The notes under the pieces were generated by a model. The model saw only the letters and a program-made list of their open reading frames with translations. It searched no databases and was not told the DNA's origin. Of a DNA stretch of 64,000 nucleotides, positions 1 to 41,412 are shown piece by piece; the first letter of the stretch is position 1; every line of letters begins with the position of its first letter. The position numbers and the translations under genes are program-made. Source of the stretch: an uncultured Thermoleophilia bacterium (GTDB taxonomy: Bacteria > Actinomycetota > Thermoleophilia > UBA2241); assembly GCA_963747935.1 (NCBI GenBank), contig CAVVGY010000006.1, forward strand, positions 30,443-94,442, read 5' to 3'.

Positions 1-428
1 CGGGCGGCGGCGCACCCCGCGCACAGCCCGCTCAGCTGCAGGAAGTGGCCGGTGATGCTGTAGCCCGTCTCCTGCGCCGCGGCGTCGGCGATGCCGCGCA
101 TGTCGCAGGCGGTGAACTCGGTGACGCGGCCGCAGCCGCTGCACACCACGGTGTGGCCGTGTTCGGCGCTGGCCGGGACGAAGCTCTCGCAGTGGTCCCG
201 GCCGTGCACCCTGCGCAGGGCGCCGACCTCGGTGAGGACCTCGAGCGTGCGGTAGACGGTGGTGAGTCCGAGCTCCGGGCACTCCGCACGCGCGGCGTCG
301 TACACCTGCGTCGCGCTGAGGCTGGAGGGCGCGGTGGCGATGGCCTCCAGCACCGCGCGTCGCTGCCGGGTGAGGCGCAGGCCTCGCTCGGCGAGCGCGG
401 CGGAGACCTGCGCGGCGTCGAAACTCAC
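1..428 (-). CDS. Fur-family regulator, probably Zur (3' end outside window)
   Basis: Own translation from GTG at 428, absent from the ORF track: MSFDAAQ...GLRLTRQRRAVL...LGLTTVYRTLEVL...HGHTVVCSGCG...LSGLCAGC; Fur HTH plus two CxxC. Confidence 0.9.
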   Translation of the reverse strand, partial: MSFDAAQVSAALAERGLRLTRQRRAVLEAIATAPSSLSATQVYDAARAECPELGLTTVYRTLEVLTEVGALRRVHGRDHCESFVPASAEHGHTVVCSGCGRVTEFTACDMRGIADAAAQETGYSITGHFLQLSGLCAGCAAA

Positions 429-33085: not shown

Positions 33086-33101
33086 TCATCCGGCCGGATG
33101 A
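33086..33101. promoter_or_regulatory. Putative TetR operator TCATCC-GGCC-GGATGA
   Basis: Perfect palindrome just downstream of -10-like TAGACT (33070-33075) before tetR. Confidence 0.6.
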
Positions 33102-33178
33102 ATCCCGGCGAGTCCCGCCGGGGCGCCGGTCATGTCCTGAGGGGTCGTCCTGTGGCTGTCCGCCGACCGCTCGTCGTC

Positions 33179-33766
33179 GTGGAAACGACGGTCGAGCCGC
33201 TGAATCCTACGGCGCAGCGCATCCTCGAGGCCGCCAAGGAACTGCTGGCCCAGAAGGGGTTCTCCGCGCTCACGCTCGAGGCCATCGCGGCTGAGGCCGG
33301 CGTCAACAAGGCGGCGACGCGGTACCACTTCGGCAGCAAGGCTGGGCTGCTCGAGGCGCTCGTCGACGAGATCGTGCTCGATGAGTGCGCGTCCATGGCG
33401 CACGACCTCACCGGCGAGCCCACCCTCGACGAGCGCCTGGACAGCTTCTTCCGGAGCGTGCGCCGCATCGCGGTCGAGCCTGCCACGTTCGGTGGGTTCT
33501 TCGACGTCCTCCCACACGCTCTGCGCGACAAGGCGCTGCGCAAGCGCCTCGTGTACCTCTACGAGGTCTGGTACCAGTGGAACGCCGAGTGGCTGGACCT
33601 CGACGCGCTCGACGACGAGCGCAGGGAGGCGCTCGCCGGGTTGGGCCGGCTCGCAGCGGCCACTATCGACGGCATCGCCATCCAGAGTTCGATCCACGGC
33701 GCCGCCTACGACCCGGAGCCGACGCTGCGGGCCTTCCGGTTCTGTCTGGAGTCCGTGCTCCGCTGA
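33179..33766 (+). CDS. TetR/AcrR-family regulator (start uncertain; ORF opens at 33098)
   Basis: RILEAAKELLAQKGFSALTLEAIAAEAGVNKAATRYHFGSKAGLL HTH. Confidence 0.9.
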   Translation: METTVEPLNPTAQRILEAAKELLAQKGFSALTLEAIAAEAGVNKAATRYHFGSKAGLLEALVDEIVLDECASMAHDLTGEPTLDERLDSFFRSVRRIAVEPATFGGFFDVLPHALRDKALRKRLVYLYEVWYQWNAEWLDLDALDDERREALAGLGRLAAATIDGIAIQSSIHGAAYDPEPTLRAFRFCLESVLR

Positions 33767-33814
33767 GCGCACCTCCGGTGCGGTACGCCCGCGCAGGACC
33801 TTCGATCCCCAGCC

Positions 33815-33876
33815 TTGTCATGGTCACCTGCCTGTGCTAGCGTGCGTCCCGCGATTCATCCCTCCGGATGGATGAA
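33815..33876 (+). promoter_or_regulatory. Sigma70-type promoter plus second TCATCC/GGATG operator
   Basis: TTGTCA (33815-33820)-N17-TAGCGT (33838-33843); TTCATCC-CTCCGGAT-GGATGAA at 33855-33876. Confidence 0.65.
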
Positions 33877-33993
33877 ACTCGACTCGTTGCCAGGGGGCGA
33901 TGAAGGAGGTCTCGCACAGGCACACGGCGTTGACGCGGCGGGTGCGACCCGCCGCGGTGTCAGTCGTCATCTACTGACAAGGGGGACCCTGCC

Positions 33994-34176
33994 ATGCCAA
34001 CAGATGAAGAGATCGTCCATCTCAAGAGCGAGCTCGCGGCGCGACTGGAACTCGTGAACAGCGACCCGGAGTACGAGGGGAAGCCGGCGACCGCGCGCGA
34101 CCAGATCATCCTCGCAGTGGTCGGGCTCGTCGTCCCGGCGATCATGATGATCGGGGGGTGGTTGATCTATGCCTGA
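33994..34176 (+). CDS. 60-aa single-TM protein overlapping the permease start
   Basis: SD AAGGGGG, C-terminal hydrophobic helix, stop overlaps next ATG. Confidence 0.7.
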   Translation: MPTDEEIVHLKSELAARLELVNSDPEYEGKPATARDQIILAVVGLVVPAIMMIGGWLIYA

Positions 34177-35665
34177 CGCACCGAGCAGCATGGAGCGGTC
34201 GGCCATCCGCGAAGCGGCGGAGGGCAGCTGGCCGGTCCTGCCGGGAGAACGCAACTGGGGACTCGTCGGGATCTTCGCGGTCACGATCTCGGCCGGTATC
34301 GCCGCGTGGAGCTACTCCATCGGCGGCGCGGTGTCCTGGTACCTGACCGCCGGCCTGGGGACCATCGCCATGATCGCCGGGTCCCTGGTGGGCATGTACT
34401 TCGTCACGGCGGCGGCGATGCCGGTGAGCGTCAAGTACGGCATCGACACCATCGCCGCCTGCAAGCCGCAGTACGGCACCAAGGGATCCGTGTTCGGGAT
34501 CTTCGCGCAGTACGCCTCGATCGTGGGGTGGAACTGCATCCTGATCATCTTGTTCGGCCGCGCCGCCGCCAACGTGCTCGCGGCCGGCGGCGTCATCGGC
34601 GAGGACTGGGTGTACCGCGTGTCGGTGATCCTCTCGCTCGTCACGATCGCCTACGTGTTCTACCTGGTCATCGGAGGCGCGGATTCCGTCCGCAACAACT
34701 CGATCTGGATCGCCGTGGCCGTCGTGATCGCCGGCCTGGTGGTGCTCTTCAGGCTGCTCACCCAGGTCGGCTGGGACACGATCGCGGCTGGCGAGCCCGC
34801 CTACGCGTCCGGCGACCTGCACCTCGACTACACGCTCGGCTTCGAGATCCTCGTCGCGACCGTGCTCTCGTGGTGGCCCTACATGGGCGGGATCATGCGC
34901 ATGAGCAAGAGCGTGAAGCAGGCCCTGCTGCCCTCGATGATCTGCCTCGGCATGATCACCGGAGTCATCGGGCTCATCGGGCTGTACGCCGGACTCGCGA
35001 CCGGCGATCCCGACCCGTCCATCTCGTTCGTCAAGGTCACCGGCCTGTGGATGGGCATCGTCGCGGTCGTCTTCATCGCCCTGGCCAACATCGGCACCGC
35101 GATCGTCGGCGTGTACGCCACCGGCATCGGGCTCAAGCAGATCCCCGCGCTGCAGTACCGCCTCAACTGGAAGTGGACGACCGTCATCGTGCTCGCGCCG
35201 GTAGCGATCATCGCGGCGTTCGTGCCCAACTGGTTCATGGACCACAGCCTCACCTACATGTACTTCCTCGGCCTGGTGTTCGCGCCCATCTGCGGCATCC
35301 AGATCGCGGACTACTACTTCTTCCGGCACCAGCGGCTCGACATGGTCTCGCTGTTCGACTACACGCCCGCGAGCCGTTATCACTTCTGGGGCGGCTTCAA
35401 CCCGGCCGCGTTCGTCGCCACGGCCGTCGGCTTCTTCGTCTATTGGTACCTGCTGGACCCGGTCACCTACGTCAGTCACAACGCGACCGCGTTCAAGTGG
35501 ATCAGCGCGTCGATCCCGTCGCTGCTCTCCGCGGCGGTGGTCTACGGCGTTCTCACCGCGCTCGTCATCAAGCCGCTGCGCAAGGGCGGGTACGAGCGCG
35601 TCCAGGCGCCGGTCTCCGTGCCCGCCGCCGCGGTGATGGAGACCGCGGGGAAGGCGGGCGAATGA
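34169..35665 (+). CDS. NCS1 / cytosine-purine permease family transporter
   Basis: About 12 TM segments, KYGI...YGTKGS, APICGIQIADYY, GGFNP motifs. Confidence 0.85.
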   Translation: MPDAPSSMERSAIREAAEGSWPVLPGERNWGLVGIFAVTISAGIAAWSYSIGGAVSWYLTAGLGTIAMIAGSLVGMYFVTAAAMPVSVKYGIDTIAACKPQYGTKGSVFGIFAQYASIVGWNCILIILFGRAAANVLAAGGVIGEDWVYRVSVILSLVTIAYVFYLVIGGADSVRNNSIWIAVAVVIAGLVVLFRLLTQVGWDTIAAGEPAYASGDLHLDYTLGFEILVATVLSWWPYMGGIMRMSKSVKQALLPSMICLGMITGVIGLIGLYAGLATGDPDPSISFVKVTGLWMGIVAVVFIALANIGTAIVGVYATGIGLKQIPALQYRLNWKWTTVIVLAPVAIIAAFVPNWFMDHSLTYMYFLGLVFAPICGIQIADYYFFRHQRLDMVSLFDYTPASRYHFWGGFNPAAFVATAVGFFVYWYLLDPVTYVSHNATAFKWISASIPSLLSAAVVYGVLTALVIKPLRKGGYERVQAPVSVPAAAVMETAGKAGE

Positions 35666-37077
35666 GCGACATCCTGACCCGCATGGGCGACGGCTACAGC
35701 GTGGAGCTGACGCTCGAGGAACTCCGCGAGGACATCGTCACCGGCTCGGCGGACGCTGCCCGCAAGGGCAAGATCCCCGTCCTCGAGAACGACGAGGTCG
35801 ACTACCTGGTCGAGATGTTCGCCAGCCCCACGCGCATCTGGGGGGTCGAGCGCGGGCACGAGGCGGTCCTGACCAAGGACGGCTCGACCAACTCGCTGTA
35901 CTCGGCGCAGCTCTCCTCGGGTGTCGGCCTGCCGCTCTCCCGCGAGCAGGCGTTCCGCACGTTCGAGCGGGCCTTCGGCTTCGACACCATGGAGGTCGGC
36001 CACTTCGACTACTCGGTCAAGCCGGCCAAGCCCATCGTCACCCTGGAGCAGACCAACGTCGAAGGCGTGCTCCACAACTGCATCATCCCGGTCTATTACG
36101 GCTTCATGCCGAACCTGGGTCTGTACTACCGGCCCGACGGGCAGTTCCCCAACCCGTCCGACCTGATGCCCAAGGGCCAGATCGCCGAGGCCAGGGCGGC
36201 GACCGAGGAGGCCTTGGTGGCCTGCCGGGACGACGTGATCTGGATGACCGGCAAGATGGCCGAGGTCGGCGTGGACGGCATCAACTACGACACCACCGCC
36301 TCCACGGGCGACGGCGAGTTCCTCGCCACGCTCGAGGCGGTCGAGTGGACGGCCAAGAACACCGACGTCTCCATCGAGGTGGGCATGGCGGCGGAGTGCG
36401 TGCTCGGCTTCCACGGGCAGCTCACCTACGACGGCGAGCGTCTCGCGGGGATGTGGCCGCACCAGCAACTGAAGGTGGTGGAGAAGGCCGGGGCCCACGT
36501 GTTCGGGCCCGTGGTCAACACCAACACGCGCCGGAGCACGCCGTGGAACCTGGCGCGGGCGGTCACGTTCATCAAGGCCGTCAGCGCCGAGGCCACGATC
36601 CCCGTCCACGCCAACGTGGGCATGGGCGTGGGCGGCGTGCCGATGTTCGAGCTCCCGCCGGCCGACGTGGTCACGCGCTGCAGCGCGGCGATGATCATGA
36701 TCGGCAAGGTCGACGGCTTGTAGGTGGGCACAGGCGATCCCAGCGGGATGAGCCTTGCTCACGCGCTGGCTTCCTCGATGGGCGGCATCCGTACCACCGG
36801 AGATCTGGTGGCCCGGATGCAGATGACCCGCAAGATGAGGTTGCCGGAGGCGAAGCGGTTTGTGGCAGACAAGCTCGGCCTGAGCGTGAGGGACATCAGC
36901 GACTCGACGGTCATGCGGGGCGTGCGCGAGGAACTCGACATCGGCGTCATCACCGCCGTGCCGGGGCTTGCGCGCGGTCTCGAGGCCAAAGCGCGCATCG
37001 CGGACCTGCTCGGCATCACCATCAACAGCGTCGAGCGGCTCAAGCGCAAGATGGGCGCATCCGCCCTCAGTCGATGA
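35662..37077 (+). CDS. mtbB: Dimethylamine:corrinoid methyltransferase MtbB homolog with in-frame amber codon (36721-36723, residue 354; predicted pyrrolysine), 471 aa
   Basis: TRMGDG, DTMEVGHFDYSVKPAKP, YGFMPNLGLYYRPDG, VNTNT, GMGVGGVPM, KVDGL-TAG-VGTGDP, GGIRTTGDLVARMQ, REELDIG; both ORF-track halves are in the same frame. Confidence 0.92.
36724..36762 (+). promoter_or_regulatory. Candidate PYLIS-like stem-loop directly 3' of the amber codon
   Basis: GTGGGCA/TGCTCAC, AGGC/GCCT and ATCCC/GGGAT nested stems with AGC loop. Confidence 0.5.
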
Positions 37078-37120
37078 CGGTCGACGCGCTGCCCGGCACG
37101 TAACCAGAGGAGGCACACGC

Positions 37121-38626
37121 ATGGCAACTGTGGAGCCGACGACCGTAGGTCCATACCCGACGCCGTACGCCGCGCCGGCAGATCCACCCATGGACTACAA
37201 GATGTACATCGGCGGCGAGTGGGTCGAATCGGAGAGCGGCGAGCGCTTCGACGTCTGGTCTCCCGGCGATGGAAGTCGCATCGGTTCGGTGCCCAAGGGC
37301 ACTACCGCGGACGTCAAGAAGGCCATCGAGGCGGCCAAGAAGGCGCAGAAGGAGATGGCCGCTCTCTCCATCCCGGCGCGCGCCAAGCTGCTGTTCAAGG
37401 CCAGCGAGATCGCGTACCGGCGCCTCGAGCACGACGCACGCGTGCTCTGCCGCGAATGCGGCAAGACGATCACCGAGGCGCGCAGCGAGATCGAGGACTA
37501 CTCCGCGCCGCACTTCATCGAGGCGGCCGAGGGCATCAAGCGCTACCGCGGCAGGATCAACCCGTCCATCCAGGAAGACACGCTGAACAAGCGCATCCTG
37601 GTCATCCACCAGCCGATGGGCGTGATCGGCATCATCTCGCCGTGGAACTGGCCGCACGACATCCCCAACATCGCGCTCACCCATGCGCTGGCCGCCGGGG
37701 ACGCGGTCGTCATGAAGCCGGCGAGCACGACGCCGTTCAGCGCGCTCATGCTCGCCGAGATCATCGAGGAGGCGGGCTTCCCGAAGGGCGTCGTCAACAT
37801 CGTCACCGGTCCAGGCCCTGTGGTCGGGGAGGAATTGGTCAGCAATCCCGGCACGGCCGCCATCCACTTCACCGGCGAGACGGGCACCGGCGAGCGACTC
37901 ACGCAGATCGCCGGCGTCAAGCGGCTCATGCTCGAGCTCGGCGGCAACGGGCCGCTCGTGGTGTGGGACGACGCGAACATCGAGGAGGCCGTCGAGGCCA
38001 CCATCACCGGCTGCTTCTACCTCGCAGGCCAGGTTTGCACAGCGTCCGAGCGCATCCTCGTTCACGAGGCTGTGCACGACGAGTTCGTCGAGAAGCTGGT
38101 GGCGCGGGCGAAGAAGGTCAAGGTCGGTAATCCGCTCGACGAGGGCACCGACATGGGCCCGCTCAACAACCCGAGCAACGTGGCGAAGGTGCAGGCGCAC
38201 TTCGACGACGCGAAGCAACGCGGCGGCAAGTTCCTCATGGGCGGCACCATCGACGGCATGTACGCCGAGGTGACCGTCGTCGACGGCGTGACCTCGGACT
38301 TCCTCATGGCGCGCGACGAGACGTTCGGCCCCGTCGCGCCGATCATGACGTTCAAGGACATGGACGAGTGTCTGAGGATCGCCAACGAGACGCCCTACGG
38401 ACTCCAGGGAGCCGCCTTCACGAGCAGTCTGCGCACCGCCTTCCTGCTCGGCGAGGGCATCGAGTGCGGTACTGTGCTCATCAACGAGACGAACAACTGC
38501 TGGGACCAGCTCTCGCCGTTCGGCGGCGTCAAGAAGAGCGGCCTGGGGCGCGAGCTCAGCGACTGGTGCTTCGACGAGCTGACCGAGACCAAGCAGCTCA
38601 ACATCGACATCAGCAAGGTGAAGTGA
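37121..38626 (+). CDS. NAD(P)-dependent aldehyde dehydrogenase
   Basis: ISPWNWP, KPAS, FTGE.GTG, LELGGN, GQVCTAS, ETFGPV, PFGGVKKSGLGRE. Confidence 0.93.
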   Translation: MATVEPTTVGPYPTPYAAPADPPMDYKMYIGGEWVESESGERFDVWSPGDGSRIGSVPKGTTADVKKAIEAAKKAQKEMAALSIPARAKLLFKASEIAYRRLEHDARVLCRECGKTITEARSEIEDYSAPHFIEAAEGIKRYRGRINPSIQEDTLNKRILVIHQPMGVIGIISPWNWPHDIPNIALTHALAAGDAVVMKPASTTPFSALMLAEIIEEAGFPKGVVNIVTGPGPVVGEELVSNPGTAAIHFTGETGTGERLTQIAGVKRLMLELGGNGPLVVWDDANIEEAVEATITGCFYLAGQVCTASERILVHEAVHDEFVEKLVARAKKVKVGNPLDEGTDMGPLNNPSNVAKVQAHFDDAKQRGGKFLMGGTIDGMYAEVTVVDGVTSDFLMARDETFGPVAPIMTFKDMDECLRIANETPYGLQGAAFTSSLRTAFLLGEGIECGTVLINETNNCWDQLSPFGGVKKSGLGRELSDWCFDELTETKQLNIDISKVK

Positions 38627-38934
38627 CTCTGCGGTAGAAGGCCGGGAGGCAGGTCGGCAGGGCGGCCGGGGCGGGAGCCCCGGCCGCCCTGCCACGTTTG
38701 ACGCCCGTCGTCCGGTGGGCGCCGGTCCAGGGGGGATGCCGGGTGTCGCAGCGCTCCGTCACGCTTGCCTCGGCGGCCTCGCCTTCTATACGATATCGCT
38801 ATACCACGATGCGATATGTGAGGCCGGGTACGGGGCGATTGCCCGGCCTTCGCCGTCGTTCTACGATTGCGAATCTGTGGGAGCCTGTCCGTCCGTCCCG
38901 GGCGGGAGCTTGAACCTTGGAGGGGGTGCTCAAC

Positions 38935-39321
38935 GTGAGCGCACAAGAGCGCGAGACGGCCAACGTCGGCGCCGGGTTGTGGAAGGGCATCGGCATGTGG
39001 GCCTGGATCCTCTTCCGCATCAGCGGGCTGGTCCTGGCCGCCTACCTGTTCGTCCACATCTGGGTCATCTCCCAGGGTCGCGTGAGCGGCGCGGGGACGC
39101 TGAACAGCTTCTTCGAGACGTTCGACAAGCCGTTCCTGGTGTTCCTCGACTCGGTCCTCGTGGCCGCCGTGCTGTACCACGCGCTCAACGGCGTGCGCAT
39201 CCTGCTGATGGACTTCGGCATCGGCATCCAGCGTCACAAGGCCGTCTTCTGGATCTGCATGCTGATCGCCGCCGCGGCGGTGTGGGGGTTCGCCTACAAG
39301 GCCATCCCCCTCATCTTCTAG
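38935..39321 (+). CDS. sdhC: Succinate dehydrogenase cytochrome b subunit
   Basis: FRISGL, HIW, YHALNGVRILLMD; three TM. Confidence 0.88.
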   Translation: MSAQERETANVGAGLWKGIGMWAWILFRISGLVLAAYLFVHIWVISQGRVSGAGTLNSFFETFDKPFLVFLDSVLVAAVLYHALNGVRILLMDFGIGIQRHKAVFWICMLIAAAAVWGFAYKAIPLIF

Positions 39322-39331
39322 GGAGGGGAAC

Positions 39332-39694
39332 GTGAGGACCGAGACACTCGATCGCAGCGCCGGCGGGATGTGGCCCTGGCTGGGCCAGCGCGTCACCGCC
39401 GTTGTCATCCTCGTCACCATCATGGTCCACCTGGTGCTCACGCACTTCGTGGCCATCGGCCAGCTCAGCTACGAGAACATCGGCGAGCGGCTGGCCATGA
39501 CGGCCGTGCTCGTCAACGACGTGCTGCTGCTGGTGGCCGTCGTGTACCACGCCCTCAACGGGGTGCGCATGGTCGTGCTGGACTACGGATTCAAGGGCAC
39601 GGGCGCCCGTCGCGGGCTCGCCGTGTTCCTCTGGGTCGTCGGCATCATCGCTGTCGTCTACGGCATCTGGGCCCTCTGGGTCTGGGTGAGCTGA
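39332..39694 (+). CDS. sdhD: Succinate dehydrogenase membrane anchor
   Basis: WLGQRVTA, HLVLTH, YHALNGVRMVVLDY. Confidence 0.85.
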   Translation: MRTETLDRSAGGMWPWLGQRVTAVVILVTIMVHLVLTHFVAIGQLSYENIGERLAMTAVLVNDVLLLVAVVYHALNGVRMVVLDYGFKGTGARRGLAVFLWVVGIIAVVYGIWALWVWVS

Positions 39695-39705
39695 GGGGGA
39701 GAGGC

Positions 39706-41412
39706 ATGCCACACCATCAGCTGATCGTGGTCGGCGGCGGGCTCGCAGGGCTCCGCGCCGCCGTGGAGGCCAAGGCGGACGGGCTGGACGTGGCGGTCCT
39801 CAGCCAGGTCCACCCCGGCCGCAGCCACTCGAGCGCCGCGCAGGGCGGCATCAACGCGGCGCTGGCCAACCACCCGGACGCCCACGACGACACGCCCGAG
39901 AAGCACGCCTTCGACACGGTCAAGGGCTCGGACTACCTGGCCGACCAGGACACCGCCATCCAGATGACCAAGGACGCCCCCGGCGTCATCTTCGAGATGG
40001 ACCACTGGGGCTGCCCGTTCAGCCGCTTCGACGACGGGCGCATCGCCCAGCGGCCGTTCGGCGGCGCCGGGTACCCGCGCACCTGCTACGGCGCCGACAA
40101 GACCGGCCACTACCTGCTGCACACGCTGGTCGAGCGCGCCTACGAGCGTCAGGTCAAGATGTACATCGAGGTCTTCGTCACCTCGCTCATCGTCGACGAC
40201 GGTCGCTGCCGCGGCGTCGTCGCCTACGACATGATCAAGGGCGGGTTCCACGCCTTCACGGCCGACGCCGTGGTCATGGCCACGGGCGGCGCCGGCCGCA
40301 TCTACGGCAACTCCACCAACGCCATCATCAGCACCGGCGCCGGCGCGGCCATGGCCTACCAGGCCGGAGTGCCCGCGGAGGACATGGAGTTCATCCAGTT
40401 CCACCCCACGGGCCTGCTCACCTCGCACATCCTCATGAGCGAGGCGTGCCGGGGCGAGGGCGGCTACCTCGTCAACGGCGAGGGCGAGCGCTTCATGGCC
40501 AGGTACGCGCCCAAGGCCATGGAGCTGGCGCCGCGCGACATCACCGCGCGCTCCATCACCACGGAGATCAACGAGGGCCGCGGCATCGGCGGAGCCGACT
40601 ACGTGAACCTCGACCTGCGGCACCTCGGCGCCGAGAAGATCCTCGAGCGGCTGCCCGGCATCCGCGACATCGCCATCCACTTCGAGGGCGTCGACCCCAT
40701 CGAGGAGCCCATCCCGATCCGCCCGGTCCAGCACTACACCATGGGCGGCATCGACACCGACGTGGACGGGCGCACGAGGCTCCTGGGCCTCTACGCGGCC
40801 GGCGAGTGCGCCTGCGTCAGCGTGCACGGCGCCAACCGGCTCGGCGGCAACTCGCTGCTCGAGACCGTCGTCTTCGGGCGGCGCGCCGGCATGGCCGTCG
40901 TGGCCGACCTCGAGGGCGGAGCCTCCGCCGGCGATCCCACGCCGGCCGCGGCCGGCGCCGTCACGGCCATGGAAGCGCGCGTCAAGGAGCTTGCGGCGCG
41001 CGGCGCGGACGGGGCCGACCCGTACGCCATCCGCGCCGAGATGATCGCCACCACGCGCGACTACTTCGGCGTGTTCCGCGAGGACAGCGTCATGCGCACA
41101 GGTCTCGAGACCCTGCGCCGGCTCAAGGAGCGCTGCAGCAAGATCGGTCTGCGCAACGCCGGCGGCGTGTTCAACCTCGACCTCATGCGCACGCTCGAGC
41201 TCGAGGGCATGGTCGACCTCTCCCTGTGCGTCGCCGAGGGCGCCCTCGCACGCACCGAGTCGCGCGGGTCGCACTCACGCACCGACTTCCCGGCGCGCGA
41301 TGACGAGCAGTGGCTCAAGCACACGCTCGCGTACTACACCCCGGAGGGGCCGCGGCTCGAGTACGCGCCCGTCACCCTCGGTCCCTTCGAGCCACAGGAG
41401 CGGAAGTACTGA
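39706..41412 (+). CDS. sdhA: Succinate dehydrogenase/fumarate reductase flavoprotein
   Basis: GGGLAG, RSHSSAAQGG, QFHPTG, HYTMGG, HGANRLGGNSL, ESRGSH. Confidence 0.95.
   Translation: MPHHQLIVVGGGLAGLRAAVEAKADGLDVAVLSQVHPGRSHSSAAQGGINAALANHPDAHDDTPEKHAFDTVKGSDYLADQDTAIQMTKDAPGVIFEMDHWGCPFSRFDDGRIAQRPFGGAGYPRTCYGADKTGHYLLHTLVERAYERQVKMYIEVFVTSLIVDDGRCRGVVAYDMIKGGFHAFTADAVVMATGGAGRIYGNSTNAIISTGAGAAMAYQAGVPAEDMEFIQFHPTGLLTSHILMSEACRGEGGYLVNGEGERFMARYAPKAMELAPRDITARSITTEINEGRGIGGADYVNLDLRHLGAEKILERLPGIRDIAIHFEGVDPIEEPIPIRPVQHYTMGGIDTDVDGRTRLLGLYAAGECACVSVHGANRLGGNSLLETVVFGRRAGMAVVADLEGGASAGDPTPAAAGAVTAMEARVKELAARGADGADPYAIRAEMIATTRDYFGVFREDSVMRTGLETLRRLKERCSKIGLRNAGGVFNLDLMRTLELEGMVDLSLCVAEGALARTESRGSHSRTDFPARDDEQWLKHTLAYYTPEGPRLEYAPVTLGPFEPQERKY

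Follow-up and report, generated by a model that had tools for sequence, protein, structure and literature searches.

The bacterial selenocysteine insertion sequence (SECIS) is a coding-sequence hairpin located immediately downstream of the recoded stop codon; it is indispensable, and a dedicated factor, SelB, recognises it. Viral 3' stem-loops and pseudoknots, e.g. the gag-pol pseudoknot of murine leukaemia virus (MuLV), stimulate stop-codon read-through and are both conserved and experimentally tested. For pyrrolysine (Pyl), which is inserted at UAG, the existence of a signal in the messenger RNA (mRNA) has been debated for some two decades. A stem-loop downstream of the Pyl UAG in mtmB1 of Methanosarcina barkeri, the pyrrolysine insertion sequence (PYLIS; Rfam RF01982, PYLIS_1), was proposed to favour translation of that codon. 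According to passages of a review (PMC2933860), replacement of the mtmB1 PYLIS gave less full-length product and did not abolish Pyl insertion, so that the element is non-essential; the same passages describe the covariation in the mtmB PYLIS as limited, with nothing similar seen in mtbB, and state that Pyl-tRNA is carried by the general elongation factor. The accessible part of an early bacterial survey reports no common structure in bacterial methyltransferase genes (PMC1976440), and that of PMC3639795 reports that mtbB, in contrast to mtmB, allows a rather canonical consensus structure, and mttB none. The latter paper would seem to underlie Rfam RF02509, PYLIS_2 ("Pyrrolysine insertion sequence mtbB"), which is itself a prediction. 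The term PYLIS is absent from the accessible part of PMC12626013. The present study concerns the element that follows the Pyl codon of a dimethylamine methyltransferase gene (mtbB) in an uncultured Thermoleophilia bacterium (assembly GCA_963747935.1, contig CAVVGY010000006.1, positions 30,443 to 94,442); this stretch of 64,000 nucleotides is called the window, and its coordinates are used throughout.

Model position 1 of PYLIS_2 falls on the TAG at 36721, and the match (58.5 bits, gathering score 36, E 1.8e-11 on the whole window) covers model positions 1-100. All eight mtbB paralogues of this genome, with one TAG each, match the same family with 48.5-72.5 bits. The family is already catalogued, and this case adds to it a member and a clean internal control and not a new kind. 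A first-pass annotation of the window had flagged a stem-loop directly after the amber codon as a PYLIS-like signal that constrains synonymous sites and marks this UAG as sense. We consider it rather probable that this stem-loop (hairpin 1) is the 5', lineage-variable part of a two-hairpin PYLIS_2 element, the fixed part of which would consist of a second hairpin 65-100 nt after the UAG, held by compensatory synonymous changes, its AGAY loop, encoded by a rare, invariant GGA and the GAU or GAC codon next to it, and a UUR (or UAC) codon directly 5' of the UAG. The features concerned are the following, all on the + strand.

35662..37077, +: mtbB (dimethylamine methyltransferase) coding sequence with one in-frame TAG, from the read-through translation, the PF09505 match and the list of open reading frames (ORFs)
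36718..36720, +: codon −1, TTG (Leu), a rare Leu codon and the second strongest codon-bias outlier of 149 columns (G = 182)
36721..36723, +: in-frame TAG, the pyrrolysine codon, with TAG at the same column in 91/91 copies and tRNA-Pyl(CUA) and PylS encoded elsewhere in the genome
36721..36820, +: match to Rfam RF02509 PYLIS_2, model positions 1-100
36724..36762, +: hairpin 1, the stem-loop reported earlier, 16 bp in three stems, lineage-variable according to folding, chance tests and homologue comparison
36785..36820, +: hairpin 2, the conserved core, from pair cells in 90 sequences, compensated switches and window z-scores in both gene sets
36799..36804, +: codons +26 (GGA) and +27 (GAT), +26 being the top codon-bias outlier (G = 197)

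The homologues comprised 80 public loci (of 464 relatives found) and the eight paralogues, which together yielded 91 copies, and in each of these the TAG occupies the same codon. Copies distinct over the 108 nt from the TAG make up an alignment of 90 sequences. For the gene-wide tests, sequence from 1020 nt upstream to 330 nt downstream of the TAG was required. Five genes had a second stop in this frame and one had a short flank or contained an N; 82 genes were available after their exclusion, and 39 Actinomycetota-centred genes remained when these were thinned to <85% nucleotide identity. A second sample was drawn from 401 Bacillota genomes, of which 21 have mtbB, giving 26 non-redundant genes, while archaeal mtbB is represented by the Rfam consensus alone. 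Excess structure was measured in 42-nt sliding windows placed every 15 nt (87 windows), each compared with 40 permutations of the codons of the same gene; the Mann-Whitney p values of this test are uncorrected for kinship. Phylogenetic tests used a tree of the 82 genes that was built without the codons of the element.

The structure that is maintained across the family is hairpin 2, which spans +65 to +100 relative to the UAG and was not singled out in the first-pass annotation. Its outer stem pairs 36785-36791 with 36814-36820 and its inner stem 36794-36800 with 36805-36811, enclosing the loop AGAU (36801-36804), and 89.8% of its pair cells are formed in the 90 sequences. Pair 78-87, which joins the third bases of a Thr/Ala codon and a Leu CUN codon, is paired in 90/90 (CG 51, UG 20, GC 16, UA 2, AU 1). 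It underwent at least 20 state changes on the tree, and in 7/7 phylogenetically independent G/C switches the partner had switched too (sign test p 0.016). Pairs 75-90 (CG 52, GC 12, UA 7, UG 7, AU 5, with 7 unpaired) and 69-96 (CG 49, GC 21, where Ile AUC is combined with Arg CGG/AGG, and Met AUG with Arg CGC) point in the same direction, but with few independent pairs. Clear compensatory changes of this kind set hairpin 2 apart from the mtmB1 PYLIS, which belongs to another gene family, has another structure and shows limited covariation according to the above passages (PMC2933860). On the opposite strand, C-A mismatches would take the place of the invariant G-U pairs 76-89 and 79-86, and hairpin 2 therefore belongs to the sense RNA. 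In the permutation test, the +64 window is the most negative of the 87 in the 39 genes (mean z −1.23, 8/39 below −2, Mann-Whitney p 2.7e-9) and again ranks 1 of 87 in the 26 Bacillota genes (mean z −1.91, 42% below −2). Window-level synonymous conservation, scored as identical-codon pairs in 9-codon windows, was tried as a further indicator and discarded: it has no peak over either hairpin, and its highest windows lie elsewhere in the gene. Over hairpin 2 the observed/expected synonymous identity is 1.10-1.17, compared to a 95th percentile of 1.26. A flat profile is expected where sites co-vary instead of freezing, while it counts against constraint on hairpin 1. Judged from these alignments, the constrained structure is hairpin 2, kept by compensatory changes at synonymous sites.

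The window differs from the Rfam model in several details. None of the seven pairs of consensus hairpin 2 (model 73-92) is flagged in the window, so that this hairpin is present in full, and in the Rfam register it is paired in 90.6% of cells among the 90 homologues, with compensatory changes at 75-90. Pair 78-87 is left unpaired by the model, yet it is the one that is paired throughout, and the outer extension seen in the window (65-71 with 94-100) is not annotated in it. The first hairpin lies in roughly the same place (model 7-38, window 4-42), but 5/11 of its consensus pairs are non-canonical in the window, where hairpin 1 shares the 5' arm, pairs it with a 3' arm displaced by two bases, and is extended by an outer stem of 7 bp. 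The setting is otherwise that of the family, i.e. an element starting at the UAG of mtbB in a Pyl-equipped organism.

The second part of the fixed context consists of codons. Departure from the genes' own codon usage was scored in 149 columns with a conserved degenerate amino acid, and the top six outliers are, in this order, +26, −1, +27, −2, +39 and +28. The counts are 39/39 GGA for Gly +26, TTG 29 and TTA 6 of 35 for Leu −1, GAT 27/39 for Asp +27, and GGG 25/39 for Gly −2; +39 is an Arg and +28 a Leu position. Codon +26 is GGA in 82/82 mtbB genes and in 27/30 Bacillota genes, although GGA makes up 8% of Gly codons, and over a 450-codon stretch of the mtbB in the window it is the sole GGA of 44 Gly codons, with +27 being one of two GAT. 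The hairpin-2 loop begins with the third base of this GGA and ends with that of the GAU. The resulting GGAGAU (+27 being either GAT or GAC) is Shine-Dalgarno-like as well as forming the loop, and either property might be selected. At codon −1, the 82 genes have TTG 66, TTA 9 and TAC 7 and never CTN, while CTC and CTG together account for ~86% of the Leu codons in these genes, and TTG for 7% of those in a crude set of ORFs from the genome; the Bacillota genes (n=30) have TTG 25, TTA 4 and TTT 1. The bias at −1 points to an effect of the P-site codon or its tRNA on UAG decoding. In a single-sequence fold, the UUG before the UAG pairs with a CAAG in conserved D-K-L codons ~150 nt downstream; this candidate was rejected, as RNAalifold over codons −12 to +60 of the 39 genes gave no support for it and the UUA variants are without a matching change. 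A/T-ending codons are enriched over codons +1 to +33 (20.3% vs 10.1% elsewhere), the element being the richer part in 35/39 genes. Taken as a whole, these comparisons support a family-wide constraint on synonymous sites around the UAG. To this extent the earlier proposal stands, as a PYLIS-type element (58.5 bits) and a family-wide constraint are there, but the flagged hairpin is not the conserved signal.

The position of hairpin 2 raises the question of whether the fixed features have to do with the UAG at all. Hairpin 2 begins 65 nt from the UAG, which on geometrical grounds would be too far to touch the ribosome that is decoding it. The fixed codons and hairpin 2 could instead serve a programmed slow-down, through rare codons or the Shine-Dalgarno-like GGAG, for the folding of the C-terminal domain or the docking of a cofactor, or they could form a site of mRNA stability or processing. 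The invariance of GGAG and the unpaired state of the rare third bases in hairpin 2 fit such a role, which we nevertheless regard as unlikely since the strongest codon-bias outliers include −1 and −2, at the UAG itself, and since the unrelated Pyl-containing mttB genes have retained a small hairpin and rare codons about as far from their UAG while Pyl-free paralogues have not. In the five Pyl-mttB genes of this genome (e.g. C13:28113-29516; L099-L103) and in distinct ones from the class (27/27), codons +22 to +24 are GCG-TTG-GCA, of which TTG and GCA are rare, and a hairpin of 6 bp (GUUGGC/GCCAAC) with an AGGN loop can be formed from +69 to +84, resembling hairpin 2 of mtbB in distance and in the start of its loop. 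The 14 Pyl-free MttB paralogues in the genome have no such hairpin and carry common codons of the CTC/GCC type there. Leu codons at −1 in the 27 Pyl-mttB genes are TTG in 12/12 cases. The consensus of Rfam PYLIS_3 does not annotate the +69 to +84 hairpin. As the site is invariant, it is uninformative on pairing, and the Pyl-mttB genes form one clade and hence one observation, so this hairpin is a lead.

We now turn to hairpin 1, with which the two-hairpin reading began. The sequence from 36724 to 36762 (GUGGGCACAGGCGAUCCCAGCGGGAUGAGCCUUGCUCAC) begins at the first base 3' of the TAG and folds as previously described, into three stacked stems (7+4+5 = 16 bp) closed by a 3-nt loop, the minimum free energy (MFE) being −22.1 kcal/mol and the structure accounting for 80% of the ensemble. 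Compared to dinucleotide shuffles (mean −11.4), its z is −4.26, with 1/200 equally stable, and it is retained in the MFE structure of the 201-nt stretch 36700-36900 (z −2.55). Recodings that keep its 13 amino acids give a more demanding control: with genome codon usage the mean is −14.9 (sd 3.3) and 63/3000 are as stable (p ~0.02), with uniform synonymous choice 4/3000 are, and when the gene's own synonymous codons are permuted (40x) z is −2.88 and the position ranks 2 of 87 windows. Hairpin 1 is thus moderately unusual among recodings that preserve the protein, and the claim that its stability exceeds synonymous controls survives in a modest form. The use of rare A/T-ending codons was also borne out, as 8/33 codons after the TAG end in A or T vs 14/416 elsewhere in the gene (Fisher p 5.6e-5). 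ACA, GAT, CTT and GCT sit at +3, +5, +11 and +12, and further atypical codons occur up to about +27, and a few between +46 and +48. Single-swap folding shows a loss of 2.9 kcal/mol for GAT to GAC and of 2.2 kcal/mol each for ACA to ACC and CTT to CTC, while ACA to ACG costs just 0.3 kcal/mol.

Across the 39 genes the +4 window has a mean z of −0.84, and 9/39 genes fall below −2 against a background of 5.1% (Mann-Whitney p 0.0017); together with +64 it is one of the two most negative of the 87 windows. The clade means are −0.9 (n 20), −2.16 (n 2) and −1.64 (n 6), the excess arising in these three separate clades with different base pairs in each. Hairpin 1 is stabler than most synonymous versions of the gene, and similar hairpins recur in several clades of the Actinomycetota.

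A number of observations weigh against giving hairpin 1 a part in the element, and several of them are those expected if it were a functionless by-product of self-complementary GC-rich codons for V-G-x-G-D-P-x-G-M...H and of synonymous drift, with selection acting on hairpin 2 and the flanking codons only. The protein sequence alone already yields about −15 kcal/mol at this position, and the single-gene p is just ~0.02. CTT to CTG and GCT to GCC would give −24.5 and −25.1 kcal/mol, both stabler than the native −22.1; two of the four rare codons are suboptimal for hairpin 1, which therefore explains the rare codons in part only. One clade of nine genes has a mean z of +0.09 in the +4 window, the 26 Bacillota genes have +0.02 (rank 55 of 87), and 3/8 paralogues of the same genome (L002, L005 and L006) have +1.5, +2.0 and +0.6. 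In the 90 homologues the pair cells of hairpin 1 are formed in 62.5% of cases in its own register and 64.1% in the Rfam register, so the conservation expected by the first-pass annotation was not found. RNAalifold does not recover hairpin 1, keeping only the inner stem of hairpin 2. The covariation that had been anticipated finds no independent support either: no independent pairs on the tree back hairpin 1, and a coupling of GAU with GGG in its inner stem, which has a raw odds ratio of 4.8 (p 0.002), is lost in independent pairs (of 11, 0.9 in the same direction and 9.7 without difference). Suppression of synonymous change, likewise predicted, is not seen over codons +4 to +12 of hairpin 1 (observed/expected 0.84-0.97). 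The Rfam score owes much to conserved coding sequence, since the five Pyl-mttB genes of this genome pass RF02510 PYLIS_3 without any excess +4 structure (z −0.1 to +1.2); a general +4 hairpin was looked for in these genes and dropped, as none of the five has one. Finally, ribosome profiling of M. acetivorans from 2026 reports no distinct pause at the mtbB or mttB UAG in the accessible part of the article, where the word PYLIS is also absent (PMC13663744).

In view of this list, the by-product explanation is a serious contender, though on balance we doubt it. Drift on a favourable protein sequence does not readily account for 9/39 genes below −2 in a window that is the second most negative of 87, nor for the excess in three clades that reach it through different base pairs, nor for the 2-3 kcal/mol that GAT and the ACA/CTT pairing each add over C-ending alternatives. 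Within the two-hairpin element that we prefer, hairpin 1 is at best an optional, lineage-specific addition.

The same data bear on the idea that the hairpin directly after the UAG is a cis signal of the SECIS type, which marks the codon as sense and is needed for Pyl insertion. The hairpin is indeed located immediately 3' of the UAG, in a genome where TAG is also a common stop, and is more stable than its controls, and like a SECIS it is a coding-sequence hairpin just 3' of a recoded stop. The eight paralogues, however, share one translation machinery and some of them are without hairpin 1, so hairpin 1 cannot be what marks UAG as sense, and the claim to this effect fails on L002, L005 and L006. 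A SECIS-like signal would be present at every recoded codon read by the same machinery, and it is lacking in these three paralogues and in the five Pyl-mttB genes; it is also not conserved in the mtbB family. According to the passages of PMC2933860, moreover, Pyl-tRNA uses the general elongation factor and the mtmB1 PYLIS is not essential, and we consider this explanation very improbable. The within-cell comparison of paralogues shows that a hairpin touching the UAG is not required.

If the two-hairpin element has a role in read-through, it would presumably act in cis on the translating ribosome, in an organism that has both release factor 1 (RF1) and UAG as a common stop. A ribosome with UAG in its A site encloses about ten further bases, which means that it must already have melted the outer stem (7 bp) of hairpin 1. 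The inner 9 bp, which are GC-rich (36735-36758), would then be at the mRNA entrance, as are 3' stimulators of read-through, and could shift the competition between Pyl-tRNA and RF1. In having a stable structure a few bases 3' of the UAG, hairpin 1 may resemble the viral read-through elements, from which it differs in being variable and predicted. The likeness to the mtmB1 PYLIS is that of a stem-loop downstream of a Pyl UAG for which a role in favouring UAG translation has been proposed.

The genome provides the context for these considerations. The assembly (3.24 Mb, 17 contigs, 84.6% complete, 70.4% G+C) encodes a typical tRNA-Pyl(CUA) with a 6-bp anticodon stem, a PylS C-terminal domain (320 bits), RF1 (493 bits, above the cut-off) and a tRNA-Sec. 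TAG terminates 703/2542 ORFs, roughly a quarter, in a crude set of long ORFs rich in G or C at third codon positions; the set may include spurious antisense ORFs and the share is rough, but TAG is clearly not rare as a stop. Given this and the presence of RF1, UAG has two meanings in this organism. There are 39 MttB-family matches, five of them in genes with a TAG. The mtbB ORF runs from the ATG at 35662, which overlaps the stop of the upstream permease (ATGA), to the stop at 37075-37077, with its sole in-frame TAG at 36721-36723, and its read-through product matches PF09505 (Dimeth_Pyl) over profile positions 4-462 of 463 (E 3.7e-190). Among the matches listed, the closest mtbB relatives lie in metagenome-assembled genomes labelled Thermoleophilia or Actinomycetota. 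The neighbourhood (33098-41412) contains, in order, a TetR-family regulator, an NCS1-type permease, mtbB, an aldehyde dehydrogenase and a fumarate-reductase-like flavoprotein, and no corrinoid protein was found among the mtbB neighbours scanned in this interval.

Some further observations were made on the UAG and its surroundings. The first codon after the TAG is GTG, as in 62/82 mtbB homologues, and a mechanical ORF list gives an ORF of 117 aa starting there (36724-37077). In several paralogues, the arms of the hairpin-1 outer stem match, over five bases, the anticodon stem of tRNA-Pyl (C5:22166-22238), GUGGG/CCCAC. These arms (GUGGG...CCCAC) derive from Val-Gly and x-His codons, and the identity is probably a coincidence; inspection by eye for an extended pairing of the tRNA-Pyl anticodon loop or stem with the bases flanking the UAG gave none beyond the codon. 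An MtmB homologue at C3:57881-59243 (L119, L120) was set aside as a third test case, its two Pfam pieces being in different frames with no TAG in the matched parts; it could be a frameshifted or a Pyl-free MtmB-like gene. An MttB-family match with one in-frame TGA (C3:5649-7130, L108), in this genome with a tRNA-Sec, overlaps the end of a neighbouring match and may simply represent two adjacent genes.

A broader interpretation can be put forward as a speculation, which we think less likely to hold than not by a good measure. In bacteria where UAG is still a stop, Pyl decoding might be aided by a conserved composite mRNA context in place of a SECIS-like hairpin, namely a UUR codon in the P site and a hairpin with an AG-purine-N loop ~70-85 nt downstream, built from otherwise avoided codons (GGA in mtbB, TTG-GCA in the Pyl-mttB of the class), to which GC-rich Actinomycetota would add a roadblock hairpin after the UAG. 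If this were true, the same layout would have arisen by convergence in two enzyme families that are unrelated, and the view that Pyl insertion needs no cis signal would be reopened. What the eight diverged mtbB paralogues provide, in a cell with one machinery and TAG as a still frequent stop, is a comparison in which the UAG-touching hairpin is dispensable while a second hairpin is kept constant, as are a few specific codons. Hairpin 2 and these codons are thereby targets for reporters with synonymous mutations and for the design of amber-suppression contexts.

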